Assembly: GCA_963804165.1 (NCBI GenBank)
Contig: CAWDPO010000011.1
Location: forward strand, 51,759-83,758
Source: an uncultured delta proteobacterium
GTDB lineage: Bacteria > Desulfobacterota > Binatia > UBA9968
DNA: 32,000 nt
Direction of reading: 5' to 3'
Positions 2 through 24,989 of the stretch are shown here, in pieces; within the stretch, counting starts at the first letter, position 1, and each line of letters begins with the position of its first letter. The notes beneath the pieces were generated by a model. The model was not told the origin of the DNA and did not search any database. It saw only the letters and a program-made list of their open reading frames with translations. The position numbers and the translations under genes were made by a program.

Positions 2-769
2 GCCGGAGCCGAAAAAAGTGGCGCGGCGCCGGAGCGAAAAAAAGTTCACCTTGCTCAAGTTCAGAAGAAGCTCCCGAAGATTGTTCTTATATACCAGGTT
101 CAGAGCCAGATTCCTCTGGTTAGGACTTTTTACTACGGCGAAGAAATCTCGAAAACCCTTCCTTCATTCGTTCATCCGAATGAGTTCATCGATGGAGCGG
201 TGGTGAGCGGCACCTATAAAAGCGAGCGAAAAATTCCCACTTCGCTGCATTGTGCGAACCCTTTTATCGAGGAGATGCTCAAGCGGCACGGCGGCGAGTT
301 GGAGTTCCTCGGTGTGATTCTCTCGCGCGGATATAACGACAGCTTTGAGCAGAAAAAGAAAATGGGGCTGTGGAGCGCTCGCTTGGCCAGATGTTTGGGC
401 GCTGACGGCGCCGTGGCGATGATGGAGGGAACCGGCAATACGACCGTCGATTTTATGCAAACCGTCAAAGCTTGCGAAGCGGAAGGGATTAAGACCGTAG
501 CGGTTCTGCACGAGGATAACGGCGCCAAAGGCTATGAAAGGCCGCTGGTCGATCATCCGCGCGAAGCCGACGCGATGATCAGCCGTGGCAACCGCTCCGA
601 GAAATTGGTTCTTGCCCCACTCGACCAGGTCATCGGAGGAAAGGAGATCGACCTCCATCTTAAACTCAAACACGATCCGCATAAGCCACTGTTTTTCGAC
701 CCGACGATCTTTTTCGGTGCGCATTGTCAGATGGGAGCCAGCGGCTTTCGTGCTGCCTTTGAAAGCTGA
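2..769 (+). CDS. GrdE/PrdA-family protein (glycine/sarcosine/betaine reductase component B alpha/beta-like); 5' end lies outside the window
   Basis: Frame 2 is open from base 2; by hand translation there is no stop before the listed GTG at 200. The translation ...HPNEFIDGAVVSGTYKSERK...NPFIEEMLKRHG...LGADGAVAMMEGTGNTTVDFM...EGIKTVAVLHE carries motifs I recall from GrdE/PrdA proproteins. It ends 12 nt before the grdB-like gene. Confidence 0.6.
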   Translation, partial: AGAEKSGAAPERKKVHLAQVQKKLPKIVLIYQVQSQIPLVRTFYYGEEISKTLPSFVHPNEFIDGAVVSGTYKSERKIPTSLHCANPFIEEMLKRHGGELEFLGVILSRGYNDSFEQKKKMGLWSARLARCLGADGAVAMMEGTGNTTVDFMQTVKACEAEGIKTVAVLHEDNGAKGYERPLVDHPREADAMISRGNRSEKLVLAPLDQVIGGKEIDLHLKLKHDPHKPLFFDPTIFFGAHCQMGASGFRAAFES

Positions 770-781
770 GATGAAACCAAA

Positions 782-2086
782 ATGATCAAAGTTTTACACT
801 ATCTCAATCAATTTTTTGCCGGCATCGGCGGTGAGGAGAAAGCCGGACAGGAATTTTTCTTTCTGCCGAAGCCCGCCGGACCCGGTGTCCTGCTCCGCGA
901 CCTACTGAAGAACCAGGACATTGAGTATGCAACGGTGGTCTGCGGCGACAACTATTTTCATGAACATGAAGAAGCTGTTCTCGCTTCTTTGACGGAAGTG
1001 ATGGCGCAGTTTGCGCCGGACCTGTTTGTCGCCGGTCCGGCTTTTCATGCGGGGAGATACGGGCTTGCCTGCGCCAAAACCGCCAGCTTCGTGCGCGAGC
1101 GTTGGGGCGTGCCGGCGCTGACAGGGCTCTATGAAGAAAATCCGGGAACGAAGGAAGTCGGCCGGCATGTCTTGGTGATCCAGACGGGTTCGTCGGCTGC
1201 TTCGATGCAAACCGCCATTAAGCGGTTCGCCGATCTGGCGGTGCTTTTGCTCCACAAGAACGTTGAAAACCTCGAGGCCTTCAAAGAGGAATTTTGTCTA
1301 AAGATCCCGCGGCGATTTACCGTTCAAGCCGCTGCTCCCGACAGCGTACGAGCAGTGGAGATGCTGCTAGCTAAGCTGGGTGGCGCGGCTTTCGAGAGCG
1401 AGATCCCGCGAATCGAGGTGGCGCCCCATCCGGTTCCCGCCGCGATTCAAGATCTCTCTCAGGCAACTCTCGCCATGGTGACGGAAGGCGGTTTGGTGCC
1501 ATTAGGCAATCCCGACCGGCTGGAAAGCTCGCGCGGAACGAAGTACTTCAAGTACTCGATCAAAGAACGCGACGACTTGAAACCGGGCGAGTTCGAAGCC
1601 ATGCATACCGGTTACGACACCTCCACGGTCAACGCTGATCCCGACCGGCTTATTCCCGTAGACGCCATGCGGACATTGGAACGCGCCGGGAATTTCGGCA
1701 GACTTCACGATTACTATTATGTCACGACCGGAACCGGCGCCATGCCTGCCAAGATGCAGGAGCTCGGCGCAGGGATCGCCCAGGAGCTTTCGGCCTCGGG
1801 TGTAAACGGAGTCGTTCTCACTGCGACGTGAGGGACCGGCACGCGTAGCGGCGCTACGATCGCAAAAGAAATTGAGCGGAGAGGAATTCCGGTGGTGCTC
1901 ATCACCTGTCTCGCCAATGTGGCAACGCAAGTCGGGGCATACCGGATCATGAGCGGAAATAAATTTCACTACCCGGTGGGCAACCCGGATCTTCCGGCCG
2001 CCGAAGAAGCGAAGTGGCGCGCTGAGTTGCTGAGCGCGGCGCTGAAAATTTTACAAACCACAGTCGATGCCCCGACTGTCTTCTAA
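782..2086 (+). CDS. GrdB-family selenoprotein B-like reductase subunit, with selenocysteine encoded by the in-frame TGA at 1829-1831
   Basis: ORFs 782..1831 and 1892..2086 are in the same frame and are separated only by one TGA. The N-terminus (VLHYLNQFFAGIGGEEKA, GDNYF, AGPAFHAGRYG, TGLYEENPG) and the region after the TGA (GT.TR.GAT..KEIERRGIPVV ... LQTTVDAPTVF) match GrdB as I recall it. The TGA falls where GrdB has Sec (..LT.TU-GT..). Confidence 0.85.
1844..1858 (+). promoter_or_regulatory. Candidate bacterial SECIS hairpin for the UGA at 1829
   Basis: Perfect 6-bp stem cgtagc/gctacg around a G-rich loop (ggc, or cggcg if the top pair opens). It starts 13 nt after the UGA. Confidence 0.5.
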
Positions 2087-2099
2087 ATCGAATGCTGTC

Positions 2100-2246
2100 A
2101 TGGAACGTCGAGCATTGTTGTTGCTAGTCGCCGGCTTTGTTTTTGCTGTTAATTTCCTTTCAGTCAACGCGACGACGCGCGCGAATACCAAGATCCGCGT
2201 TGGTCTTCCCGATTTCACCAGCTGCTCTGGTCTTCATCCTATATAG
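2100..2246 (+). other. 48-codon ORF resembling the first ~40 residues of a solute-binding protein (possible gene remnant)
   Basis: Hand translation gives MERRALLLLVAGFVFAVNFLSVNATTRANTKIRVGLPDF..., a signal-peptide-like sequence followed by a KIRVG motif. It then stops and runs into the 3' end of the convergent bicupin. It is below the ORF-track size cutoff. Confidence 0.2.
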
Positions 2247-3373
2247 CCGGCATCGCACTGGCCACGCCACGTTTTCGCATCTCGTCTTCGTAGTGTTTGC
2301 GAATGTACGGGTCTTCATCGGCGTATTCGATCAAGGTGCCGCCTTCTTTCACGTCTATATAAACGCCGTCCTCACTCCGCTTGTCGGCAATCTTAAAGCC
2401 GATGGGGTGAATCCGGCTGCCATAGCGAAGCGCGAGATGTCGCGCCGGCTCGGGGCCGGTATTAAAATGTTGATGGAACCATCCCCCCGGCGGGCAATAG
2501 ACACTGCCGGCTTTCCATTTCACCTCGACGATTTCGTCCCCGCGGCCCGCTTCATAGGGCCCGAGGACCGAGTTCCTTCGACCATAACAAAACATAACCC
2601 GACGACTGCAAGCCCAACAGAATCGCGCCGGAACCGTGATAGTGCGCCTTGTGGTACCGAGCCGCCGGCCACTGTGCTAGATGGCCGATCAAACTATTGC
2701 CGGATAGCTCGAACTGAGTAATCCGCACCCCCGCTCCCTTGATCTCGCGTTGATCCAAATTCGCCGACTGAATGTCCATGATGAAATTGGTTTCCCAGAT
2801 ATGCTGCATTCCCGACTCGTAGCGCTTTTGTCCGACATGAAAAAAATCGTCTACCCCCGCGTAACGATCGGCAAAATTATAGGGGCAGTTAAAAATGAAC
2901 TCCTCATTATGCACGATGTCCATCACCAGCGGGGCGTTAGTGACCGCCAAAAATTTCACCGGCAGGCGCCCGCCGTTGATCAACCGATGCCAGGTGTTGA
3001 GCGGTGGCGCAAACAAGCTCCACGGCCCCCATTCGAACATCTGCTTGCGCCCACCCTCTTGCCATACTTCCGTGGCGCCTTGGCCGTCGAGTATGCAGAT
3101 CACTTCTTCGTAAAAATGCTTCTCGGCTAGAAGCGCGCCGCCGGCGGGAATCTCGCCGACATACATTCCGGTAACGCCTTCCATGCCGTATAGATTAATG
3201 AACGTCGCCTTGCCGCCGGTGCGTGTCCAGGGCGCCATGGCGACTTCCCGGACATCCTCGAGGCCGTAACCATCGATCACCGGAATCCCCTGGCAAGCCA
3301 TCCACTTGAAGTAAGTGGTTTTGTGAAACGCCGCCATCAAAGCTTTGATTCGTTCGTCCTGCGACATAATCAT
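2239..3373 (-). pseudogene. Bicupin (gentisate-dioxygenase-like, two cupin barrels) interrupted by one frameshift near 2556-2572
   Basis: ORF 2552..3466 carries cupin 1 and the start of cupin 2 (HKAHYHGSGAILLGLQSSGYVLLW). ORF 2239..2595 continues cupin 2 (EIVEVKWKAGSVYCPPGGWFHQHFNTG) in the next frame, overlapping at cctcgggccc. The likely start is the ATG at 3373 (or 3367), after AAGGAG. Confidence 0.75.
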
Positions 3374-3479
3374 CCGGCTCCTTCGCCGACGGAATTTTTT
3401 CTTAGTGAATGTTTCGATTGCAGATTGATTCGGCCATTGCATCGAAACGGAACGAAAACCTACCACAGTTCGATGAGAT

Positions 3480-3775
3480 CAGGAAGGTTTCCGATGCGCA
3501 ACGAAAAAGAGCCGGATCTTAAGCGTCAACGGCGCAACAGGTGATTGATTGGGTGCTGAAAGCGAAGATGATCGGAAAGGAGTTCGAGGATCTGGCGCGG
3601 ATGCGGGATGCGTTGACACGCGCCAAATCAGCTCTGGGCGGCGCTAGACGACACAGGGGGCGTTGGTTTCGACGTTCCGCTTTACATCGTGCATGCTCTC
3701 CGCTCTCTTAGCGAGATCAAAGCTATCAAGATGATGAGTGTCGGTGCACCCGAGGCGATGGCTGGTCGCTCAGGG
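3480..3775 (+). pseudogene. Decayed internal fragment of an MR/MLE (enolase superfamily) gene, paralogous to 5971..7038
   Basis: TAQQVIDWVLKAKMIGKEFEDLARMRDAL aligns with TAQHVIETVLKGKVVGKEIEDLPRIRADI, and EIKAIKMMSVGAPEAMA aligns with EIRVIKMVSVGDPDAMA. Nucleotide similarity is visible (ggaaaggagttcgaggatctggcgcggatg vs ggcaaggagatcgaggatctgccgcggata). Stops and frame changes lie in between, and the first ~45 codons are missing. Confidence 0.7.
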
Positions 3776-3822
3776 CGAAATCATGATCGACATCGATCGC
3801 AATTTCGCTACCGCGCAGGCGG

Positions 3823-5358
3823 TCAGCGCAAAACGAATGTTCCGACACGGCCGAGTCCGTCGGAACCCATGTCGCTATTTTGAACCAATTCCCCGCGAAC
3901 CAATGACCACGCCGAGGATCTTGAGGTAGGGCCGACATCGTCGACGACGGTCCAGCCGGTAAGAGTCGTGCGGTTGAAGTCATCCCAAAGCAACTCCGCA
4001 CCAGTGGCGAGGTCGACGACTTTTACGTCGTCGAAAGCGCTTCCCTGATTGCGCGAAGAGTAAAGCGCGACGGTGCCGTTTCGAAAACTTTGATCGTGAA
4101 CAGAGAAAACCGGTTTACCGTCGATGTTGACCTTCAGAGTCGTTCCCTGGGCGATAAGCTCGATCAAATAGTTGTGACCACTGACGTACGGGACAGTATC
4201 CTCAGCGATAACCTTGAAAATACCGTTTTCACGTTTTATGAGCTGACGTCCCGCGGGTTCTTGCGCCCATGAAAAGCGATAATAGTTGTCTCTGTCCTGA
4301 TAGCGGAACATGACCCCTAACGTGTCATCGTCGGCAGAGCGCATTTTTAGCGCGACGCGATAGTCTTTCCAGCTTGCTTGAGTGTACAAAGCGTAGGTTC
4401 CTAATTGCCCGCCTCGCGTTGAAGAGATATTGCTGCTTTGCACCAGGGCGCCCGTGGCTGCGGACCAATGGGATGGGCCGGCGGAGTCTCCCTCGTCGAT
4501 AATGGTCCAGCTTCGATGTATGCCGTCATTGAAGTTGGCAGAGAGTAAGGTATTACCGCCGTTGAGGTCATCAACCACGATGTCGTCGAAGGCACTTCCC
4601 TGGTTGGAATACGAATATAACGCAATCGTCCCTTCCGGGATGGCGCTGTCGGTCACGGAGAACACCGAGCGTCCATCGATCAAGACCTTCAAGGACGAGC
4701 CCTGGGTGACGATTTGTAAAGTATACGTTTGCCCCACTGTGTACGGCACTGAGTCTTTCGCCAATACCTGGAACACACCGCCGACACGTTTCTCAAGTCG
4801 CCGAGAGCTATTCCCCGCAGACCAGCTGAAACGATAGTAGTTGTTTGGATCCTGATAGCGAAACATTGCTCCTATGGAGTCGCTATCGGTGGAGCGGATT
4901 TTCATTGTCAGGCGATAATTGTTCCACCGACCGGCGCCCTCTGCGCCGGGTGAGGGATTTGAGCCCAGAGCCGTGGAGCCAGTCGAGATCTGGGTGGTGG
5001 GAGTCAAGGTCGTAGGAGCCAGGTTCGTGGAAGTGGGCTGAGAATTACTCGAAACGGTGGCGCACGCGCTGTTGGAAGTCAGCGAATCTCCCGCCTTGTT
5101 AAACGCCCGCACGCGATAGCAGTAAGTTGATCCGGCGTTTAATCCTGAATCCGTGTAGCTTTCCGTATTGGCGCCCACCCGGGCGATTTCAACATACTTA
5201 CCTGAGATCTGGCGCTCGATCGTAAATCCGACTTCCGTGGCAGAATTGTCTCGCCAGTTCAGGAGTAGAGTAGCGGACTCACTGATGCTGGCCCATAGCG
5301 TCGTGAAACCGAGGGTGAACAAAACAAAGGCCAAGAACGGCAGTGGAATTCGGAGCAA
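3823..5358 (-). CDS. Secreted protein: signal peptide, FN3 domain, S/T/P linker, then two tandem ~170-aa concanavalin/LamG/DUF1080-like repeats
   Basis: TTG start 5 nt after TAGGAGGTG. Hydrophobic N-terminus. FN3-like segment LLLNWRDNSATEVGFTIERQ...YCYRVRAFN. The two repeats are clearly alignable (W.NYRLTMKIRS..GAMFRYQDPNNYYRFSW vs WKDYRVALKMRS..GVMFRYQDRDNYYRFSW). Confidence 0.8.
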   Translation of the reverse strand: MLRIPLPFLAFVLFTLGFTTLWASISESATLLLNWRDNSATEVGFTIERQISGKYVEIARVGANTESYTDSGLNAGSTYCYRVRAFNKAGDSLTSNSACATVSSNSQPTSTNLAPTTLTPTTQISTGSTALGSNPSPGAEGAGRWNNYRLTMKIRSTDSDSIGAMFRYQDPNNYYRFSWSAGNSSRRLEKRVGGVFQVLAKDSVPYTVGQTYTLQIVTQGSSLKVLIDGRSVFSVTDSAIPEGTIALYSYSNQGSAFDDIVVDDLNGGNTLLSANFNDGIHRSWTIIDEGDSAGPSHWSAATGALVQSSNISSTRGGQLGTYALYTQASWKDYRVALKMRSADDDTLGVMFRYQDRDNYYRFSWAQEPAGRQLIKRENGIFKVIAEDTVPYVSGHNYLIELIAQGTTLKVNIDGKPVFSVHDQSFRNGTVALYSSRNQGSAFDDVKVVDLATGAELLWDDFNRTTLTGWTVVDDVGPTSRSSAWSLVRGELVQNSDMGSDGLGRVGTFVLR

Positions 5359-5970
5359 ACTACACCTCCTAAAGCCGGTAAGATCCCGACCTGTGAAGGT
5401 GCGGGGAATCGTCTCGGGCAGTCTTTCAGTACTCAGTAGCGTCCCGCCAGCGCCTTTCAGGGTAGCGGGCTAATCGTCCATGTGCAGAGTGATTTAATTC
5501 TGGCGCGTCGCCGCACTGCAACGCAATCGCGATGCCAAGTACGGATCATCGAAAAAATTTGCTAACCGCATTTTCTGACTCTGAAACAATGAAACCATCG
5601 ACGGGACAAATGCATGATTTTTTGGAGGAACTGTCGCAAGAAAATTTTCGGTAACTGCGACTTCGCCAAAGCACTCCCGCTCTTTGTCGAGGAGCGATGT
5701 ATGAAAAAGAAGTCAAAATAGTGACAAAAGAGTGCAGGGAGGTTCGGACACTTTGGGCTCATTCAATTCAGATAACTTTAGTCTCTCCCGGTGATGCTCA
5801 TTCGGTAACGACGAGAGAGCATCGGTTCTGACGCGTCGATCTTGGTCGCCATTGTGATACTGTTGTTCGCTTGTCGAATTAGATATCCGTCTAGTTAGGC
5901 TGGCAGCTTATCATTAAGTTATGCTATCCATCGCTACAGTTTTATCATTTTGAGATCGAGGTAGGGCGTT

Positions 5971-7038
5971 ATGCAGATCGCGAAAATCGATACCAGGTTG
6001 CTCGAAATGCCCTATAACAAGCCGTTGGTTACGGCAACGAATAATTTCACCGTCGCGCGCGGATTGCTCGTGAAGGTCGCTACGGACGGTGGCATCGAAG
6101 GTTACGGCTATTCCGATCTCTTCCCGCGCACCGGCGAGACGCCCCAGACGGCGCAGCATGTCATCGAAACAGTTCTAAAAGGTAAGGTGGTCGGCAAGGA
6201 GATCGAGGATCTGCCGCGGATACGCGCCGACATCGATCATACTTTGACCGGAAACCCGCGGGCCAAGGCGGCTTTGGAAACCGCGATGTACGACGCGCTG
6301 GCGCGGGGCTATCACATGCCGCTATCCGTCATGCTCGGCGGGAAATATCGAAGCGAGATTAGAGTCATCAAGATGGTGAGCGTCGGCGATCCCGATGCGA
6401 TGGCCGAAGAAGCGAAACAGCTTGTGCGTAGCGGACTGGCGCTGAAGCTCAAAGTCGGCGGGAAGATTGAGCAGGATTTGCCCCGGGTTGCGGCCGTACG
6501 CAAGGCGGTCGGCGCCGACGTCTTCATCAAAGTCGACGCCAATGAATCGTACGATGCAAAAACCGCCATTCGCTTGGCCAAAGGGCTGGCCGATCACGGG
6601 GTGGAAGTCTTCGAACAGCCGGTGCCGCGCGATCAACTCGACGCCTTGTGGGAAGTGAAAAAGCATTCGCCGATCAAGATCGAAGCGGACCAGTCGGCAC
6701 GATCCTTCGCCGACGTACAGATGATGATTAAAAATCGCATGGTCGATTCGATCAACACGGGTATCGCTAAAGTCGGTAGCATTGGAGAGGTGCGCAAAAT
6801 CGCTGATCTTTGTGAGCTGAACGGTATCCGCTGCGCCCTCTCGAACACGGCGGGCAGTATGGTTGGCGACGCTGCCGCGGTGCATCTCGCGGCGAGCACG
6901 CCCGGTATCTCACCGTTGTGCGAGCTGGGCGAGTTTGAAGTGATCACCGGCGATCCATTTTTCGGCCTGACGGTCGAGAAGGGCATGATCAGCGTGCCGG
7001 AGGGCGAGGGATTGGGGGTGAGTCTCAGGGGATTCTAG
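5971..7038 (+). CDS. Mandelate racemase/muconate lactonizing enzyme family protein (enolase superfamily, dipeptide-epimerase-like)
   Basis: 355-aa ORF with the characteristic KVDANESYD, FEQPVPRD and IKIEADQS metal-ligand regions. Confidence 0.9.
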   Translation: MQIAKIDTRLLEMPYNKPLVTATNNFTVARGLLVKVATDGGIEGYGYSDLFPRTGETPQTAQHVIETVLKGKVVGKEIEDLPRIRADIDHTLTGNPRAKAALETAMYDALARGYHMPLSVMLGGKYRSEIRVIKMVSVGDPDAMAEEAKQLVRSGLALKLKVGGKIEQDLPRVAAVRKAVGADVFIKVDANESYDAKTAIRLAKGLADHGVEVFEQPVPRDQLDALWEVKKHSPIKIEADQSARSFADVQMMIKNRMVDSINTGIAKVGSIGEVRKIADLCELNGIRCALSNTAGSMVGDAAAVHLAASTPGISPLCELGEFEVITGDPFFGLTVEKGMISVPEGEGLGVSLRGF

Positions 7039-7054
7039 GAAGAGTGGAAGCAAT

Positions 7055-7171
7055 CGTTGCAGACGTTCCAATCGTTCAAGTCGTTTCGAACGGACTCCGG
7101 ACTCGATCCCGGCGATTGAACGTTTTGAACGGAGCGTAGCGGTTGAACGGTTTGAACCATTTGAACTCTTA
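7055..7171. repeat. 13 consecutive 9-bp phased units: four CGTTnnAnn units followed by five TTGAAC-containing units in opposite orientation
   Basis: CGTT starts at 7055, 7064, 7073 and 7082. TTGAAC sits at 7116, 7125, 7143, 7152 and 7161, all at 9-bp multiples; the 7134 slot is degenerate. CGTTCAA is the reverse complement of TTGAACG. The array fills the MR/MLE-UbiD intergenic region. Confidence 0.8.
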
Positions 7172-7190
7172 ATCTTGAGGAAAGATACCT

Positions 7191-8624
7191 ATGCCGGATT
7201 TACGCACATGGCTTAACGATGTCGACAAGCTCGGTCAGCTGATGACCGTGGAAAACGTTCACTGGGATCTCGAGCTTTCGACCTTGACGGAAATTATCAA
7301 CGAGCGCTCGAAGACGCGACCGGCGATCATTTTCGATCGCATCAAAGACTACCCGCAAGGTTATCGCGTTGCCGCCAATCTGGTGTCATCTGTCGGTCGC
7401 TTGGCTCTCACGCTCGGCATGAAGGCCGACATGAGCGATATGGATTTCGTCCAAGCTTGGCGCCAGCAGGTTAAGAAGATCACACCGCTGCCGACAGAGA
7501 CAGTTGCGACGGGACGGCTGTTTGAAAACGTCAAGAAAGGTAAAGACATTAACGTACTGCAATTTCCCGTGCCACGCTGGCACGAGCTGGATGGCGGGCG
7601 CTACATCGGCACCGACGATCTCGTGATCACGCGCGATCCGGAGGAGGACTGGGTCAACGTCGGCACCTACCGAGTCATGGTTCACGGCCCCGATCGCCTG
7701 GGGTTACACATGTCGCCCGGTAAACATGGCCGCGTGCACAGGGACAAATATCACGCGTGGGGAAAACCGTTGCCGATCGCGGTTTCTTTCGGTCATCATC
7801 CGATCAACTTCGTCGTGGCGTCCACCGACGTACCGAATCGCGTCAACGAGTACGAGTACACCGGCGGCATTCTCGGCAAACCGCTGCAGGTCGTTAAAGG
7901 ACCGCTGACGGGTTTGCCGATCCCCGCCGACGCGGAGATCGCCATCGAAGGCGAAGTGGCGGTTGACGATGTCATGCCCGAAGGTCCGTTCGGAGAATGG
8001 ACCGGCTACTACGCAAGCAATCAGCCGGCGGTACCCGTGATTCAAATCAAAGCGCTCTACTTCCGCAACGATCCGATCCTCTGCGGCTTTCCACTGCTCA
8101 AACCCTCCGCAGGCGACAATATTCATTTCTCGCTGATGCGCTCGTCCTTGGTCTGGAACGCCCTGGATGAAGCCGGCGTGCCCGATGTCAGAGGCGTGTG
8201 GTGTCATCCCTCGGCGGGCCGCTTCCTTACCGTGGTTTCGATCAAGCAGCGCTACCCCGGTCATGCGCGCCAAGCCGGCATGATCGCTAGCCAATGCCGA
8301 TCCGGCGCTTATCTTGGCCGTTACGTCGTCGTGGTCGATGACGACGTCGACATAACCGATTCCGAAGAATTTCTCTGGGTGCTGAGCAGCCGTTCTGATC
8401 CGGCTGAGTCGATCGAGATTCTCCGGCGCGCCTGGAGCGGCCCGCTCGATCCGCGCATCGCGCGCGACCAGGTGGGTCACAGCTCGCGCGCGGTGATCGA
8501 TGCGACGCGGCCGTACGAATGGCGCGAGAAGTTTCCCAAAGTCAGCGGCGCGAGCCGAGAATTAAAAGACAAAGTCGCGGGCGATTGGCGTGAGTTTCTC
8601 GATCAGAAGGTCGCCGGAAAATAG
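7191..8624 (+). CDS. UbiD-family (prenyl-FMN dependent) decarboxylase
   Basis: 477-aa ORF after GAGGAAAG. The N-terminal DLRTWLNDVDKLGQL...IINE and the overall length are typical of the UbiD family. Confidence 0.9.
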   Translation: MPDLRTWLNDVDKLGQLMTVENVHWDLELSTLTEIINERSKTRPAIIFDRIKDYPQGYRVAANLVSSVGRLALTLGMKADMSDMDFVQAWRQQVKKITPLPTETVATGRLFENVKKGKDINVLQFPVPRWHELDGGRYIGTDDLVITRDPEEDWVNVGTYRVMVHGPDRLGLHMSPGKHGRVHRDKYHAWGKPLPIAVSFGHHPINFVVASTDVPNRVNEYEYTGGILGKPLQVVKGPLTGLPIPADAEIAIEGEVAVDDVMPEGPFGEWTGYYASNQPAVPVIQIKALYFRNDPILCGFPLLKPSAGDNIHFSLMRSSLVWNALDEAGVPDVRGVWCHPSAGRFLTVVSIKQRYPGHARQAGMIASQCRSGAYLGRYVVVVDDDVDITDSEEFLWVLSSRSDPAESIEILRRAWSGPLDPRIARDQVGHSSRAVIDATRPYEWREKFPKVSGASRELKDKVAGDWREFLDQKVAGK

Positions 8625-9274: not shown

Positions 9275-9740
9275 ACGGTTTCTCCGATCGGGCCCGTGTG
9301 CATCGGCTCGTTGACGGCATCGTCCGGAACCTCACTGCGTAGGGCCTGAAGAATGTTGCGCGCAGCGCGAAGCTCTATCTGGCGCCGAACCTCGTCCACC
9401 GCGGAGCCAAGGTGCGGTGTAAATAGCGTTTGAGACGGGTTATTGAGAAGGGTTTGCGGAATCGACTTGAGGTGGTCTTGCCGTTGCACGTCTTCGAGAA
9501 TACGCCCGCGGTATAGCCCGCGAGCTTACCCGACTCCAGAGCCCGTGCCACGGCACCTTCGTCGACCACTGATCCGCGACCGATGTTCACGAGACAACTG
9601 CCGGGCTTCATGGCAGCAAGCGTCACATCATTGATCAAGTGGAAGGTGCCGTCGAGCAGCGGCGCCGCCAGAAATCCTTGTCTTAAAGCAAGCGGATCCG
9701 CATCAATACATGGTGGAAATATACCTGCTCGTCAGGATTC
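9271..9740 (-). pseudogene. 5'-truncated, frameshifted D-isomer-specific 2-hydroxyacid dehydrogenase (PtxD/glyoxylate-reductase-like), C-terminal ~150 aa only
   Basis: ...[49 protein letters not shown] continues in another frame as ...[41 protein letters not shown]. The frame break is near 9485-9500. The NAD-binding GxGxxG region is absent because the neighbouring gene ends at 9742. Confidence 0.7.
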
Positions 9741-11144: not shown

Positions 11145-11711
11145 TTGGATTCGGACAACAAGAAAGCTCGTTTCGAGAATAGCGTGTCGCCGCATGTCGA
11201 TGCCGCGTACAATTTAGCCCGCTGGCTCACCCGCAACGAGCACGATGCGCAGGATGTGGTCGCAAGAGGCGATGCTCCGCGCGTTTAAATTTTTCGATGG
11301 TTTTCGCGGCGCGGATGCGCGTTCATGGGTGCTCAAGATCGTCCGAAATACATGCTTCACATGGCTTCAGGCCAACCGTCCCAATGAGATCGTCGGAACC
11401 GTCCCGAATGAGTTGGACGAATTGCCAGACGTTACTGCCGCCGCCGTTCTGTTCCGGGTCGGCCGATGATCCGGAGACCCTCGCGCTGCGCCGGACTACG
11501 GCTGCACAGATCGATAAGGCGCTATCCGCATTGTCGGCCCCGTTGCTCGAAGTCGTCGTTTTGCGGGAGTTGGAAGGGCTCTCGTACAAGGAGATTGCAA
11601 CGGTGATCGATGCGCCGATAGGGACAGTGATGTCACGGCTGGCGCGGGCTCGAGCGGAATCTGCGGCGTATTCTCGCCGGCTCGCAGTGTTTCGTGGGAG
11701 CAAGAAAATGA
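11145..11711 (+). pseudogene. ECF (sigma-70 family) RNA polymerase sigma factor, reading frame broken two or three times
   Basis: Region 2 (HVDAAYNLARWLTRNEHDAQDVV | QEAMLRAFKFFDGFRGADARSWVLKIVRNTC) and region 4 (LLEVVVLRELEGLSYKEIATVIDAPIGTVMSRLARAR) lie in successive frames 0, 1, 2 and probably back to 0. Breaks lie near 11260, 11445 and 11659. The last frame ends in an ATGA overlap at 11708-11711. Confidence 0.8.
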
Positions 11712-11723
11712 CGCCGGAGACGA

Positions 11724-12476
11724 ATGTGCGTGCTATTGCACGCCTATATTGACGGCGAACTCGATGCCGCCTCGACCATCGAGTTGGAGTCTCGGCTTAA
11801 GGCGTCCACGGCATTGCGGCAGGAATTGGCGCGCTTGACCGCTTTACAGCGGTCCGTGCAGAATCACGCCACGCGTTTCAACGCTCCGTCCGGCCTTACT
11901 GAAGGTTCGTTTGCGGAGATCCCCGCGGTTCAACCCAAAGCAATTCCTGTCGGCGTTCCGCCTTGGTGGCGTACGCTCGCGATCGGAACGAGCATCGCTG
12001 CTGTGGCGCTTTTGGTTTGGAGTCTCTCTTCGATCTTTGTCGGTCGTGAAACGAATTCTGTCCAATTGGAGGAGGTCGTCAGCGCGCACGTCCGCTCTCT
12101 GCTCGCGGATCATCTGACGGATCTTGCGTCCGCGGAACGCCACTCGGTCAAGCCGTGGCTGTCCAACCGTCTCGATTTCGCGCCGCCGGTTCTCGATCTC
12201 GCAAACGAAGGCTTTTCGCTCGCGGGCGGCCGGTTGGATTATCTTGGAGGAAAGCCGGCGGCGGCAATCGTCTACCGTTATCGGCAGCACATTATCAATG
12301 TTTTTGTCTCGCCATCGCTAACAAACGACAGCTCGATTCGAGCTTTGACTCACCGCGGTTATAATACGGCCAAATTCGAGTCCAATGGCATGAGTTACTG
12401 GGCTGTATCCGACTTGAATCCGGACGACCTGGGCAAACTCGCCAACCTGCTCCAACACCCACCGGTCACGAAGTAA
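11724..12476 (+). CDS. Anti-sigma factor (single-pass membrane protein, RskA/zf-HC2-like N-terminus)
   Basis: It lies directly downstream of the ECF sigma gene. The N-terminal C.LLHAYIDGELD motif is typical of anti-sigma factors. One transmembrane helix (WWRTLAIGTSIAAVALLVWSL). The start may be the ATG at 11708 if a further single-base error exists. Confidence 0.75.
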   Translation: MCVLLHAYIDGELDAASTIELESRLKASTALRQELARLTALQRSVQNHATRFNAPSGLTEGSFAEIPAVQPKAIPVGVPPWWRTLAIGTSIAAVALLVWSLSSIFVGRETNSVQLEEVVSAHVRSLLADHLTDLASAERHSVKPWLSNRLDFAPPVLDLANEGFSLAGGRLDYLGGKPAAAIVYRYRQHIINVFVSPSLTNDSSIRALTHRGYNTAKFESNGMSYWAVSDLNPDDLGKLANLLQHPPVTK

Positions 12477-12491
12477 AGCCGCGTCGGCAGT

Positions 12492-12824
12492 TTATTGGAA
12501 ATGCGCGTTCGACCCCGACGATTCCGTTTCCCAAACTCGCAAGCATTTGCGTATGCTCTGAGCGTCCAAACCGAGCACCGCGCAGATCGACTCGAAGGAA
12601 AATAATCCGTCACGATCGTTGCCAAAAAACCATTCTCGATCGTCAATCAATGATTTTTTTGGGTTGCGCAGGCGTTTCCGATAATTCAGCAAAGCATCCT
12701 TTAAAACCGCCAGCATGAGATCTTGTTCCGGGTGCCCGTGGTCGTTGCGCTTGACGGTGTCCCAATAATTGGCGTTGGCGCAGTCGTCGATATCCGGACG
12801 ATGAATCGTCGATTCGAAGTCCAT
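12492..12824 (-). CDS. Hypothetical protein, 110 aa
   Basis: ATG 7 nt after AAGGAG, with a coding-like composition. I do not recognise the family. Confidence 0.6.
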   Translation of the reverse strand: MDFESTIHRPDIDDCANANYWDTVKRNDHGHPEQDLMLAVLKDALLNYRKRLRNPKKSLIDDREWFFGNDRDGLFSFESICAVLGLDAQSIRKCLRVWETESSGSNAHFQ

Positions 12825-12922
12825 GGGTTGCTCCTTTCAATCGAGTTCGGATGCCGCGTTCAAAATCCCGGCGGCGCTGAATCTTAGACCGGCGCAATCT
12901 TGAACGTTCAGCAAGGGCGACA

Positions 12923-13168
12923 CTATGTGCGGCGGAAGGTTAAGCGGAGATTAAGCGAATGCAAAATTTTGGCCTTGGCAATTGACCTTGCGGTTCTGGG
13001 CGTCACCCGGCGTGAATCTTCCAACGAGCGGCCATCAGCGAACCTGTATGACTGAATCGCCTCCAAGCCGACCGGATTGCCGATCGGGAAAAATCCATTG
13101 GCTCCGATCCGGTTGTTGGCGCTGAAATCAATCCGGCGGTCCATGGTTCCGGAGCGCTTCAAGAACAT
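12923..13168 (-). CDS. Hypothetical protein, 81 aa
   Basis: High GC3 by eye, and divergent from the PAP2 gene across 66 bp of AT-rich DNA. No recognisable domain. Confidence 0.35.
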   Translation of the reverse strand: MFLKRSGTMDRRIDFSANNRIGANGFFPIGNPVGLEAIQSYRFADGRSLEDSRRVTPRTARSIAKAKILHSLNLRLTFRRT

Positions 13169-14626: not shown

Positions 14627-16891
14627 TTAGGCGCTCTGGCGCCGGGGGAAATAGGCGACGATATCGGTCAATGGATCGGTGATCAGCTTGATGAACCAAA
14701 TCATCGAAATGCGAAAGTCGTGCTTCCACACCAGATAAACCACGCGCCCGAGGACCACCGCCAGGGTCCACAGAAACCAATTCAGCGCCACTGCGGCGAT
14801 CGTCGAGGTGAAGCCGTCCACCGTCCAATCGCCGGCTTGCGCCACATGGAACACTGGAATCAACAGATAGCCGAGGACGATCAGCGTCTTGTTGCGCGTG
14901 TTGTATCCTAAGAGTAATTTTTCCTTGTCATGACACGCGGGCTCCAAGATCGCATGACCGAACTGCCGCACAAAAAGGGCCGCCAACCCCAAACACATCG
15001 CGATGGTGAGATCGGAAAACGCCAGAACATAGCAGTAGATGAAGACACTCGAGCTCAACAGATGGAAGAATTGGTTTACGCCGTTGCTATGGGACGCGTG
15101 ATGATCATCATGTTTTCGTTGCATCACTTCGGCATAAAACGTCCGTAGGGGTTCTGGAGTTCGTACCAGACTGCCTAACATTTCTCGCATAAGACGAGCG
15201 CGCATAATTTTCTCCCTTCCCGGATATTGATCCGCGGTCAACCACCACGCGTCGATCTTCATCGAGTGCGCGGCGTTGAGCAGCTTTGCCTGCAAGTCAT
15301 TGTAGTCTGCCACAGTAAAATCCATGCTGCTTAAGCATCGGCCGGTGCCCACCCAACTAAGCGTCACGCCTTCGGCGCGGAGATAATACTGCAGCAGCCA
15401 GTTATAGCGACTCGGTTCCTTGAAGAGCACGGTCCATACCGTCGCGAGATTCACGACGCGCAAGGGTAACGCCGCGTCGGCGAGTTTCTGATTGGTCGAG
15501 TGCACCCATTCCGCGCAACGCTGATTGGACTCGTCATACAGTTTCACCGTGGCAGGCTCTACCACCCAGCGCAAAAATTCGTTCATCGCTCCCATCACCG
15601 CCGGATGCCCGGAAAACGTGCCGACAACGTAAGCGATGCGCATGGGATGCGCGGGATCGAAACGGCGCATGAGAGTTTTATTGCCGCACACCACGCCGAT
15701 GGGCAGGCCGCCGGCCACCGTTTTGCCGTACACGACCATATCCGCGCGCACGCCGAAGTATTCCTGTGCGCCACCCGGTGAGAGGCGAAAGCCGGTATAA
15801 ACTTCGTCGAAGATCAGTGGAATATCGCAGGCGCTGCACACCTCGCGTAGTTGGCGCAGCCACTGAGCGTAGCGCTCGGTGGAATCCTGGGTTTTACGCA
15901 CGTCGCTGGTGAGTAACACCGCATCATTGGGCGGTGGGGAATTAGGATGGAACGACTGCACCGGGTTGACCAGCACCCCGGCGATTTCTTTTGCCCGCCG
16001 GCGAATGACGGCGAGCGAGGCCGGATTGACGTCCTTGAGCGTGAGGCAATCATCGAGGGGGCGTTCACTCCCCAGTCCTGGCTGCACGCCGTCCCACCAG
16101 CCATGATAAGCCCCGGAAAAACAGACGACCAGTTTTCTCCGCGTATTGAACCGCGCCATGCGCACCGCGGCCATTACGGCTTCAGTGCCGCTCATATGAA
16201 ACGACACTTCGTCCAGGTGCGAAACATTCTTGAGCATAGCGATGTTGTCGGCGACGACCGGATGCACCGGGCCCAGGACCGGACCGAGATCTTTCACGCG
16301 TTCCCAGCCCTTCTGTATCCATTCTTTATAGCGGTCGAACCCGGCCACGTTGACGCCATAGGAGCCACTGACATCGATGGTCCAATGGCCATCGAGAGTT
16401 TGCAGGCGCGGGCCTTTTGAAGCCGTCACCACCGAGCAAAGATTGAATTTTTCCCGCATGACGCGCACAAACGGGAACGGTACGCGATTGGCGTCGGTGA
16501 AGCGCAGATCCGAGAAGCTCTCGCGGACCGCATTCGCCCAGGCGATGGACTGGTGATGCTGCGTTTGCAGAAACGTCGCCAGGCGATCAAGAGCTTTCTT
16601 GCGACGGTCAACCCAACTGTCTCCCGCTCCGTCAGCGCGCAAGAATTCTTCCTCCGTGTAATCGCGCGATTTCACCCAGTGCGACAGTTGCCGCGAAAGC
16701 GCCGGCATCCATGCCAGCGCCGGCAAAGTCATGAGAAATCGAATCAGCCTTTGCCCGGCGTAAGTTAGGAAAAACAGACAAAGAATAATTCCGAAGAAAA
16801 GCCAGCCGTCGAACAAAGCGAGCCGGCACGCCGCTGTCGAGCTCGCGTCAAGGCACACCGTCCATCTTTGCAAAGCTTCGTCGAAAATCAT
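14627..16891 (-). CDS. Tri-domain membrane protein: N-terminal TM segment, class-III (GSA-aminomutase-like) PLP aminotransferase, and C-terminal DUF962/Mpo1-like His-rich membrane domain
   Basis: ATG after GGGAGGAA. Residues 1-75 are hydrophobic helices. Residues ~150-540 (16444..15272) carry SGTEAVMAAVRMAR, FDEVYTGFR and the PLP-lysine context YGKTVAGGLPIG. Residues ~575-754 (15169..14630) carry HDDHHASH...FGHAILEP plus four hydrophobic helices, as in Mpo1/YGL010w-like proteins. Confidence 0.85.
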   Translation of the reverse strand: MIFDEALQRWTVCLDASSTAACRLALFDGWLFFGIILCLFFLTYAGQRLIRFLMTLPALAWMPALSRQLSHWVKSRDYTEEEFLRADGAGDSWVDRRKKALDRLATFLQTQHHQSIAWANAVRESFSDLRFTDANRVPFPFVRVMREKFNLCSVVTASKGPRLQTLDGHWTIDVSGSYGVNVAGFDRYKEWIQKGWERVKDLGPVLGPVHPVVADNIAMLKNVSHLDEVSFHMSGTEAVMAAVRMARFNTRRKLVVCFSGAYHGWWDGVQPGLGSERPLDDCLTLKDVNPASLAVIRRRAKEIAGVLVNPVQSFHPNSPPPNDAVLLTSDVRKTQDSTERYAQWLRQLREVCSACDIPLIFDEVYTGFRLSPGGAQEYFGVRADMVVYGKTVAGGLPIGVVCGNKTLMRRFDPAHPMRIAYVVGTFSGHPAVMGAMNEFLRWVVEPATVKLYDESNQRCAEWVHSTNQKLADAALPLRVVNLATVWTVLFKEPSRYNWLLQYYLRAEGVTLSWVGTGRCLSSMDFTVADYNDLQAKLLNAAHSMKIDAWWLTADQYPGREKIMRARLMREMLGSLVRTPEPLRTFYAEVMQRKHDDHHASHSNGVNQFFHLLSSSVFIYCYVLAFSDLTIAMCLGLAALFVRQFGHAILEPACHDKEKLLLGYNTRNKTLIVLGYLLIPVFHVAQAGDWTVDGFTSTIAAVALNWFLWTLAVVLGRVVYLVWKHDFRISMIWFIKLITDPLTDIVAYFPRRQSA

Positions 16892-24263: not shown

Positions 24264-24989
24264 ATGGTTCCAAAGAAAATTTTTTACACCAAAGGAGTCG
24301 GGGTTCATAAGGAAAAGCTGGCTTCTTTTGAAATGGCGCTGAGGGTTGCCGGCCTGGCCCACTGTAATTTGGTCCTGGTTTCGAGCATCTTTCCGCCAGA
24401 CTGCAAGATTGTTCCCAAGGAGGAAGGCTTAAAGCTGTTACGACCCGGCGAGATCGTATTTGCCGTTTATGATCGAGAAAGTAACAACGAGCCGAATCGC
24501 CTCATTGCAGCTTCGGTCGGCGTGGCGATCCCCGCAGATTCGTCCGTGCATGGGTATCTTTCCGAGCATCATTCGTTTGGTGAAACGGACGAAAAAGCCG
24601 GCGAATATGCCGAAGACCTTGCCGCTAGCATGTTGGCGACCACCTTGGGGATCGAATTTGATCCTGAATTGGATTGGGACGAGCGAGAGCAGATTTTTAA
24701 GATGTCGGGAAAGATCGTCCGTACCACCAATATCACTCAGTCTGCGGTTGGCAATAAGGATGGTCTCTGGACCACGGTGTTTGCAGCTGCGGTTTTTATC
24801 AATGACGAAAGCCTATCTTTTGACATCGGAAAGTCCGTCACTGTTAGCAATAAGGCTCCGCTTCAGGAAGAAGTCTTGAGGCAAACGTTACAGAGCCAGT
24901 CTAAAACGATCCAAGCCAACGACAAACTAGCGCAGCGTAACATAGAGCAGCCTAGACTCGCTCCGGCGACAAAAAAGAGCCTTTCGTAA
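24264..24989 (+). CDS. pdaD: Pyruvoyl-dependent arginine decarboxylase with a ~60-aa C-terminal extension
   Basis: [45 protein letters not shown] contains the family's self-cleavage Ser-Ser site. ATG after GAGGAG. The Q/S/K-rich tail beyond ~aa 180 is not part of the family as I recall it. Confidence 0.85.

Follow-up and report, generated by a model that had tools for sequence, protein, structure and literature searches.

In textbooks, selenoprotein B enzymes serve as markers of anaerobic Stickland fermentation. In the chemistry common to this family, selenocysteine (Sec, U) attacks the alpha carbon of the substrate, the leaving group is displaced and a selenoether is formed; a pyruvoyl Schiff base is needed for glycine, sarcosine and proline, but not for betaine or fluoroacetate, where the partner subunits GrdI and FarE are unprocessed (PMC13188914, PMC10838667, PMC11229817). 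Both the UxxCxxC motif of the selenoprotein and the Cys-dependent formation of the pyruvoyl group in its partner are documented (PMC6778437, PMC13188914, PMC10838667, PMC11229817). A passage of PMC6778437 credits the motif following Sec to Wagner et al. (1999), and its CxxC has been described as a shield against oxidation (PMC6778437, PMC10838667). Here we describe a GrdE-like gene and a GrdB-like selenoprotein gene, adjacent to each other, in which both features are missing. They lie at the start of a 32,000-nucleotide stretch of DNA (hereafter the window; contig CAWDPO010000011.1, assembly GCA_963804165.1) from an uncultured delta proteobacterium placed by GTDB in Binatia, and belong to a discrete, strongly conserved clade. 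An earlier note on this DNA had proposed that the pair may be an undescribed member of the reductase family, with a partner chemistry or substrate different from those of the known enzymes.

A discrete clade of GrdE/GrdB-like gene pairs

The GrdB-like gene spans positions 782-2086 of the forward strand and comprises 434 codons, including Sec350, plus a stop. The ORF (open reading frame) up to the in-frame TGA (782-1831) covers the full length of PF07355 with 384 bits (cut-off 22); beyond that TGA (1829-1831) the frame stays open for 84 codons, up to a stop at 2084-2086, and the read-through product matches TIGR01918 over residues 3-434 with 403 bits (cut-off 65). In the same frame and separated by a gap of 12 nt lies the GrdE-like gene (2-769, forward strand; TGA stop at 767-769), whose open frame runs to the window edge. 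Its 255 C-terminal codons align to positions 189-385 of the 426 positions of PF09338 (196 bits), and because this match starts at profile position 189, what we have is the C-terminal part of a gene whose 5' end is cut by the window edge. A full-length ortholog of 428 aa, 92% identical to the fragment, is present on a syntenic contig (L004, 8702-9988; L and P numbers are our own, for loci and proteins). A 189-aa ORF starting from the GTG at 200 was considered as a separate gene for a cleaved alpha subunit and rejected, since the Pfam homology extends upstream in frame and the orthologs are single 428-codon ORFs. PF09338 is Gly_reductase (GrdE/GrdG/GrdI/PrdA), PF07355 is GRDB, and TIGR01918 is the NCBIfam subfamily 'glycine/betaine/sarcosine/D-proline family reductase selenoprotein B'.

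We compared the GrdB-like protein with 69 canonical selenoprotein B sequences: P. acidaminophilum GrdF, E. gilvus GrdH, the A. noterae and Photobacterium proteins, and 65 from canonical reference-genome loci. The annotated comparators were from a plasmid collection (P. acidaminophilum grdG/grdF, E. gilvus trxB-trx-grdA-grdC-grdD-grdI-grdH, and the A. noterae and Photobacterium clusters), and scanning GTDB with a single genome for each species gave 80 further loci, the best 80 relatives. In 69/69 canonical proteins the residues around Sec are T-S-T-U-G-T-C-T-R-C-G-A-T; in the window and every clade member examined they are T-A-T-U-G-T-G-T-R-S-G-A-T. There are no gaps between the two, so the alignment is certain: the sequence from Gly353 (+3) to Ser356 (+6; 1838-1849, forward strand) holds Gly and Ser in place of the two UxxCxxC cysteines in all clade members. 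In the partner, the canonical GrdE/GrdG site DGAIxSGNCV[SA]xCDK has its Cys in 62/62 sequences. The corresponding region of the window is DGAVVSGTYKSERK, with SGTYKSER against the canonical SGNCVSAC, so that Thr-Tyr (212-217, forward strand) stands where alignment places the Asn-Cys self-cleavage site that forms the pyruvoyl group. The clade consensus is DGA[VI]VSG[TN][YF]KSERK, with neither cleavage-region Cys present. The earlier note had claimed both losses; the canonical motifs on which it relied were correct, and misalignment does not account for either loss.

The differences extend beyond these two sites. The published GrdB motif, GPxF[NF]AGRYG ... AHGGxD ... RV[IL]PxD ... TxGNxTxV (Nobu et al., 2022), is not matched by the window (GPAFHAGRYG, MHTGYD, RLIPVD, TTGTGAMP), and neither is the published GrdF motif. 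Positions that are invariant in the clade and differ from residues conserved in at least 90% of canonical sequences number 35 in the B subunit and 54 in the E subunit. The features of the selenoprotein B family are all present (full-length profile match, Sec column with its insertion hairpin and C-terminal extension, adjacent PF09338 partner); those of glycine reductase protein B are lacking (UxxCxxC, Asn-Cys site, GrdB motif, accessory gene cluster). In the same way, the generic TIGR01918 is the one model matched, and the cut-offs for glycine, sarcosine, betaine, D-proline and fluoroacetate are all missed widely. The GrdB-like protein scores 376 bits with the glycine model (GrdB, TIGR01917; cut-off 602), 403 with the GrdF sarcosine model (cut-off 800; sarcosine models NF040793 and NF040794), 389 with the betaine model (GrdH, NF040795; cut-off 775) and 88 with the D-proline model (PrdB, TIGR04483; cut-off 300). 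The full-length partner ortholog from L004 reaches 207 bits with GrdG (cut-off 780) and the full-length partner 26 bits with PrdA (TIGR04480; cut-off 700), and the FarE model (NF053623; cut-off 675) gives 50 bits for the window fragment and about 100-104 for full-length orthologs.

Among the described systems, FarE/FarB of Cloacibacillus porcorum (farACEB operon, NF053623) is likewise a GrdE-like/GrdB-like pair with Sec, and, as in our clade, FarB has no CxxC and FarE has no cleavage cysteines and no pyruvoyl group (FarB being compared by its description in PMC10838667). Moreover, farC encodes a radical SAM protein, and a radical SAM gene is found beside the pair at three clade loci (L001, L004, L093). 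The two systems are nevertheless not orthologous, the GrdE-like protein scoring 100-104 bits against the 675 of the FarE cut-off and being closer to GrdG. The radical SAM gene of the clade is also unlike the farC setting in being of the B12-binding class, divergent, and absent in more distant members. No oxalate/formate-type antiporter such as farA was noted in the clade neighbourhoods examined, and the hosts differ (soil and groundwater Binatia-type bacteria against a gut anaerobe with several grd clusters).

GrdH/GrdI shares with the window pair a GrdE-family partner that has no cleavage Cys (SGSFMPC, i.e. S-F, at the E. gilvus site; T-Y in the window) and a Sec-containing B subunit directly downstream, so the lack of the cleavage Cys does not define a family by itself. 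GrdH, however, retains UGTCTRC in an operon with trxB, trx, grdA, grdC, grdD and a BCCT transporter, and identity to the E. gilvus betaine reductase is 37% for the B subunit and 31% for the partner. The GrdE/GrdB and GrdG/GrdF systems have in common with the pair the two Pfam families, gene order, Sec column and position of the insertion hairpin (B 41-46% and E 31-36% identity), but the clade has no Asn-Cys site, CxxC or accessory genes. Finally, PrdA/PrdB, a Sec enzyme of this superfamily, needs neither GrdA nor GrdCD, and PrdB lacks the +6 Cys (UGTCHRT); it differs in keeping the +3 Cys, in its length of ~240 aa, and in requiring pyruvoyl-PrdA and PrdH. Given the precedents in GrdI and FarE/FarB, 'undescribed', as the earlier note put it, holds for the clade but not for the idea of such losses.

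The clade itself is sharply delimited. The 120 best-matching protein clusters are 62-93% identical to the window GrdB-like protein, and where source names are given they are Candidatus Binatia, 'Deltaproteobacteria' and 'Alphaproteobacteria' metagenome-assembled genomes (MAGs) from soil, farmland and groundwater. Carriers of the pair include the assemblies GCA_016210115.1 and GCA_050258255.1 and the MAGs that contain JBGPIK010000239, CAVWLW010000025 and JAERMN010000129. Identity within the clade is 60-93% and the next relatives reach at most 46%. A library clustered at 50% identity contains one full-length clade representative (63%, 489 bits), followed by a match at 42% (290 bits), and among the best 80 GTDB species-representative relatives at least five are clade members (79, 72, 62, 60 and 61%), the rest lying at 41-46%. 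In a neighbour-joining tree, a rough distance tree without support testing, the clade sits on a long stem, with a Thermodesulfobacteriota MAG (L062) as sister and then a Gaiellaceae sequence (L088, UGTGTRC). L062 resembles the clade in having lost both cysteines (UGSGTRSGAT) and the partner Cys (GANYKTGTK), in its hairpin compensation (AGC/GCU, see below), and in showing no accessory genes on its short contig; it is unlike the clade in its identity (46% for B, 38% for E) and in lacking the cysteines that the clade has gained (B172, B376, E257, E331). In the wider family we also observed natural GrdE-GrdB fusions of 774-798 aa and homologs with Cys for Sec (P0134, P0161, P0180 and P0197, and P0135 and P0229), one of the latter with CCGTCQRC and one with CCGTGTRC, in which the first motif Cys is lost.

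Our literature search found nothing linking Binatia/Binatota to selenoproteins or glycine reductase, and the main Binatota genome paper makes no mention of selenium, glycine, betaine or glycine reductase (PMC8262859). The family, the individual losses (GrdI, FarE/FarB) and a generic NCBI subfamily name covering the clade are already known; the clade, its restriction to Binatia-type bacteria, its separation from GrdA/GrdCD/thioredoxin and its replacement set of cysteines were not found described in that search.

Selenocysteine decoding and purifying selection

The GrdB-like gene is a real Sec-decoding selenoprotein gene, and both genes of the pair are under strong purifying selection. The in-frame UGA (1829-1831, forward strand) falls in the column that holds U in 69/69 canonical proteins. 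Ratios of nonsynonymous to synonymous substitution (dN/dS) between the window and its orthologs lie at 0.08-0.14 (GrdB-like gene) and 0.08-0.17 (GrdE-like gene), calculated over the pairs for which dS was estimable (up to ~2.7), one GrdB-like pair having reached saturation. The stretch of 84 codons that follows the UGA gives 0.055-0.19, from which we conclude that these codons are translated. Gene lengths are constant, at 434 and 428 codons, across 60-93% identity. Among the 120 best-matching homologs, the gene-finder calls of 115 stop right at LT[AST]T before the UGA, one homolog was read through the UGA as Trp (code-4 translation), and none was seen with Cys in place of Sec.

A hairpin of the selenocysteine insertion sequence (SECIS) type, CGUAGC-GGC-GCUACG (1844-1858, forward strand), begins 12 nt past the UGA, at the same position as the canonical CGUUGC-GGN-GCAACG. 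The Cys to Ser change replaces UGC by AGC within this stem, and the opposing Ala codon changes from GCA to GCU, which restores the pairing. All 15 distinct Ser-variant sequences (12 from the clade and three other variant lineages) carry AGC together with the compensating base, and several of their hairpins have a second compensated pair (CGC...GCG). The minimum-free-energy fold of the 60 nt around the UGA is unremarkable in energy (z-score +0.65), so that the support for the hairpin is its covariation. A gathering-threshold Rfam scan of the window gave zero matches, and tRNA scans of the window and 10 clade loci found no tRNA-Sec.

One homolog, 88% identical (L001), has a one-base insertion in the GrdE-like gene that falls precisely in the stretch corresponding to the cleavage site (9380-9440; GAGTTCTTACGATGG vs GAGTTCATCGATGG). 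This single base causes gene callers to split the gene into ORFs of 257 and 189 aa, and is probably an assembly error of a long-read contig.

Accessory genes, cysteine turnover and neighbourhood

We searched for GrdA, GrdC, GrdD, TrxB and Trx with tblastn, using E. gilvus and P. acidaminophilum queries. Of 43 canonical loci whose flanks both extend 4 kb or more, 41 contain grdA, and nearly all of these also have grdC, grdD, trxB and trx. Across 14 clade loci, which together span 218 kb, none of the five genes was detected even at E<=1, chance fragments aside. Fisher's exact test for 41/43 against 0/8 (about eight clade loci have flanks of similar extent) gives p = 7e-8. In the window, the downstream neighbour of the pair is a convergent cupin gene and no grdA, trx or trxB follows, as the earlier note had observed. 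The upstream side is provided by L004, whose GrdB-like protein is 91% identical to that of the window and where the pair is followed, as in the window, by cupin, 3-keto-disaccharide-hydrolase-like and MR_MLE genes: within 8.7 kb upstream of its pair there is no grdA, trx or grdCD. The genes found there are, in order, a divergent B12-binding radical SAM gene, an ATP-binding cassette (ABC) transporter (SBP_bac_1, long permease, ATPase), an AsnC-type regulator, a dienelactone hydrolase and an amidohydrolase. A canonical gene set directly upstream, which would have contradicted the earlier note's proposal, is thus not present.

In two loci (L014, 3959-4366; L091, 9594-10000) ~400 bp of inserted non-coding DNA separate the two genes of the pair; this insert contains many short repeats, both direct and inverted (CACGAAGG..., GCTTGGCG...), and resembles a small repeat element. 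The GrdB-like gene downstream has its own AAGGAG ribosome-binding site. We considered the spacer as a hidden grdA-like gene and rejected this, its sequence being non-coding repeats.

Across these variants, the presence of grdA follows the +6 Cys. It is nearby almost always for canonical proteins with UxxCxxC, and also, together with grdC and trx, for two proteins with the +6 Cys only (L065, UGTSTRC; L088, UGTGTRC). It is not nearby where the +3 Cys alone remains (PrdB, UGTCHRT; a second pair of L091, UGTCSRS) or where both are gone (the clade; L046, UGTSTRS; L062, UGSGTRS). The numbers are small, with five variant lineages and the clade, and two loci (L062, L069) lie on short contigs; this co-occurrence suggests a link between the +6 Cys and GrdA-coupled chemistry. 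The second pair of L091 (775-3427, reverse strand) is divergent, and its partner has no Cys. The two pairs of L091 are 5 kb apart, with an ABC transporter cluster (3465-7911; SBP_bac_1, NMT1, ATPase, SBP_bac_3-permease fusion) between them, and the second pair is apparently operonic with this cluster.

While six conserved cysteines have been lost by the clade (B 353, 356 and 375; E 245, 248 and 328), four invariant ones have been gained (B 172 and 376; E 257 and 331). Cys172 (1295-1297, forward strand) is Cys in 7/7 clade proteins and Tyr in 67/69 canonical ones. Cys376 (1907-1909, forward strand) lies at the end of the strand that follows the Sec helix, the canonical Cys being one residue earlier (375). 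In the partner, Cys257 (251-253, forward strand; Cys in 6/6 clade E proteins, L/Q/M in canonical ones) is found in the context SLHC[ADS][NS]P, 12 residues past the former cleavage site. An AlphaFold model of the homolog P0047, built from a shallow alignment (mean predicted local distance difference test, pLDDT, 72; predicted template modelling score, pTM, 0.48), has a strand at 343-349, Sec350, a helix at 352-366 and a strand at 371-376 ending at Cys376. In this model Sec350 and Cys376 are placed at the C-terminal ends of successive parallel strands of a beta-alpha-beta unit, which would make Cys376 a reasonable candidate for a selenenyl-sulfide with Sec350. A PDB sequence search returned no solved relative, with chance matches to AMPA receptor domains only, and a Foldseek search of the model against the PDB gave generic SIS or periplasmic-binding alpha/beta folds at a TM score of ~0.2.

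Across clade loci the conserved unit consists of the two genes only, and the recurrent neighbours, in nearly every locus, are solute-binding-protein or transporter genes. NMT1/SsuA-like ABC binding proteins are encoded at L001, L002, L011, L013 and L091, the gene beginning 16 bp past the GrdB-like stop in L001 and L002; an SBP_bac_1 protein with a two-domain permease occurs at L004, L013, L091 and L092. TAXI-TRAP genes lie directly upstream of the pair in L005 and downstream in L092, and TctCBA genes are found at L093, L006 and 21-24 kb into the window. Binding-protein genes of NMT1 or TAXI type are located at 11321-12304 in L001, 7667-8632 in L005 and 5149-6234 in L092. Transporters of such varied type are compatible with an organic acid anion, without naming one; haloacetate or sulfoacetate would be speculation. 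A gene of the UbiD family (prenylated-FMN-type decarboxylases) is present in the window (7191-8624, preceded by an MR_MLE enolase-superfamily gene at 5971-7038), in L093 directly after the pair (11502-12941) and in L011 (9681-10367), a recurrence that may reflect a functional linkage or just inherited synteny of close relatives.

The B12-binding radical SAM gene is divergent and upstream in L004 (6919-8700, reverse strand) and L001 (7044-8603, reverse strand), and lies 3.6 kb upstream in L093 (3367-5082, reverse strand); it is absent from L005, L006, L011, L013, L091 and L092. Its product best matches the Sden_1168/PhpK-type P-methyltransferases of NCBIfam, far below threshold (125 bits vs 575), and in L004 the gene is followed by one for a binding protein weakly like 2-aminoethylphosphonate binders. 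As an obligatory partner of the pair it was rejected, since it is present in the closest relatives only.

Three further observations concern the rest of the window. The cupin gene (2239-3466, reverse strand) is in two overlapping ORFs in different frames (2552-3466 and 2239-2595); its L004 ortholog is one intact 375-aa gene, and tblastn places the change from frame -3 to -1 near 2480-2560, so the split is a frameshift or sequencing error. At 24264-24989 there is a homolog of pyruvoyl-dependent arginine decarboxylase (PF01862, 204 bits), a pyruvoyl enzyme unrelated to the pair, which adjoins a histidine phosphatase gene and an Asp/Glu racemase-family gene. At 14627-16891 (reverse strand) a 754-aa ORF has a class-III aminotransferase match confined to residues 342-516; its first 340 residues have no Pfam match, and its neighbours are glycosyltransferase, phospholipid methyltransferase and PAP2 genes.

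Proposed mechanism and alternatives

We propose that the pair encodes a heteromeric 'protein B'-type enzyme, made up of an unprocessed GrdE-like subunit without a pyruvoyl group and a GrdB-like selenoprotein. We favour this reading, with the mechanism that follows, while judging it a shade below an even call. The separate clade, the missed cut-offs and the lack of adjacent grdA, grdCD or trx make a different partner chemistry or substrate, as the earlier note had suggested, the best reading of the sequences; the clade enzyme probably performs different chemistry. By analogy with betaine and fluoroacetate, this substrate is probably an alpha-substituted carboxylate whose leaving group has no need of Schiff-base activation, and its import would probably fall to the ABC, TAXI-TRAP or Tct systems encoded next to the pair. 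Sec350 would attack the alpha carbon to give the selenoether. That GrdA, GrdCD and thioredoxin genes are never nearby and that the +3 and +6 cysteines are gone suggests resolution of the selenoether within the enzyme, by a relocated cysteine (Cys376 being the first candidate), or by a small thiol. GrdA and GrdCD would not be involved, and the product would be the free reduced acid, with no acetyl phosphate.

A more specific form of this proposal is possible, although we consider it doubtful: a self-contained, GrdA-independent selenoenzyme of largely aerobic soil Binatia that carries out reductive C-X cleavage of a non-amine alpha-substituted carboxylate, with Sec350 as nucleophile and the relocated cysteines (B Cys376/Cys172, E Cys257/Cys331) resolving the intermediate. 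Its substrate could be, for example, a halo- or sulfo-acetate-like compound imported by NMT1/SsuA-like, TAXI-TRAP or Tct systems. If true, this would be a third way to close the catalytic cycle of the family, beside transfer to GrdA and the +3 Cys of PrdB.

Several points weigh against the proposal. Mechanism and substrate are, for all members, deduced from sequence. The proximity of Cys376 to Sec350 is suggested by the order of secondary-structure elements in a model of moderate quality, and what the canonical CxxC does is not firmly established either. Transporter types vary and no catabolic neighbour is universal, which leaves the substrate unconstrained. Finally, grdA, grdCD or trx may be encoded outside the loci searched, and FarEB has been proposed to use a trans-encoded GrdA (PMC10838667).

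This last point leads to an alternative that we regard as unlikely, in which the pair is a substrate-specific protein B feeding a GrdA/GrdCD/thioredoxin system encoded elsewhere in the genome. The same has been proposed for FarEB: FarB and FarE lack the same residues, yet grdA is up-regulated with fluoroacetate, and many bacteria have several B components for one A/C set (PMC10838667). Furthermore, 2/43 canonical loci likewise have no accessory genes nearby. Set against this are the contrast between 0/14 clade and 41/43 canonical loci, the parallel between loss of the +6 Cys and absence of grdA in four independent variant groups, and the finding that Binatia among the best 80 GTDB relatives are represented by clade members only, never by a canonical grd cluster. 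A search with a Gaiellaceae GrdA says nothing about Binatia, its best 120 matches all being near-identical soil actinobacterial GrdA sequences without taxon names.

A non-reductive role, in which Sec would act on a transported acid by group transfer, isomerisation or lyase chemistry, or would serve as a redox sensor, seems to us improbable. The residues of the reductive cycle (pyruvoyl site, CxxC) are indeed all gone, as are the partner genes, and the substrate-contact motifs are changed (AHGG to MHTG, TxGNxTxV to TTGTGAMP). The clade nevertheless keeps Sec, the frame T-x-T-U-G-T-x-T-R-x-G-A-T and most family-invariant residues. This retention of Sec and its flanks argues for the same nucleophilic step, and all characterised members of the family are reductases.

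JGI and NCBI names point to an ordinary betaine (GrdH/GrdI) or sarcosine reductase, in an unusual phylum; we regard this as very improbable. Such names include 'betaine reductase' and 'glycine reductase', the partner would be unprocessed like GrdI, and the top NCBIfam scores are those of GrdF and GrdH, but the GrdF, GrdH, GrdB and GrdG scores given above are around half of their cut-offs or below, the published GrdB and GrdF motifs are unmatched, and GrdH keeps both its cysteines and its accessory operon. A decaying pseudogene pair, for which one could cite the DCMF genome paper, where a B component without UxxCxxC was called a likely pseudogene (PMC6778437), and the 1-nt frameshift of L001, is refuted, unless the alignments are wrong, by dN/dS values that stay at 0.08-0.14 out to synonymous saturation, post-UGA codons included, and by the compensatory substitution in the SECIS hairpin, with the constant gene lengths and more than 100 database clusters truncated at the UGA alone also against it.

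An immediate consequence of these results concerns annotation: the glycine or betaine reductase calls routinely given to such enzymes in metagenomes are wrong for a widespread soil and groundwater group and should be corrected. The clade also constitutes a natural experiment on the purpose of the UxxCxxC cysteines and of the pyruvoyl group. If the clade enzyme is independent of GrdA and GrdCD, it would close the cycle of Sec-dependent C-X bond reduction in a new way, and probably on a new class of substrates, the defluorination of fluoroacetate by FarEB being the sole known parallel. It would also mean that selenium is required in a phylum in which no such need is known.

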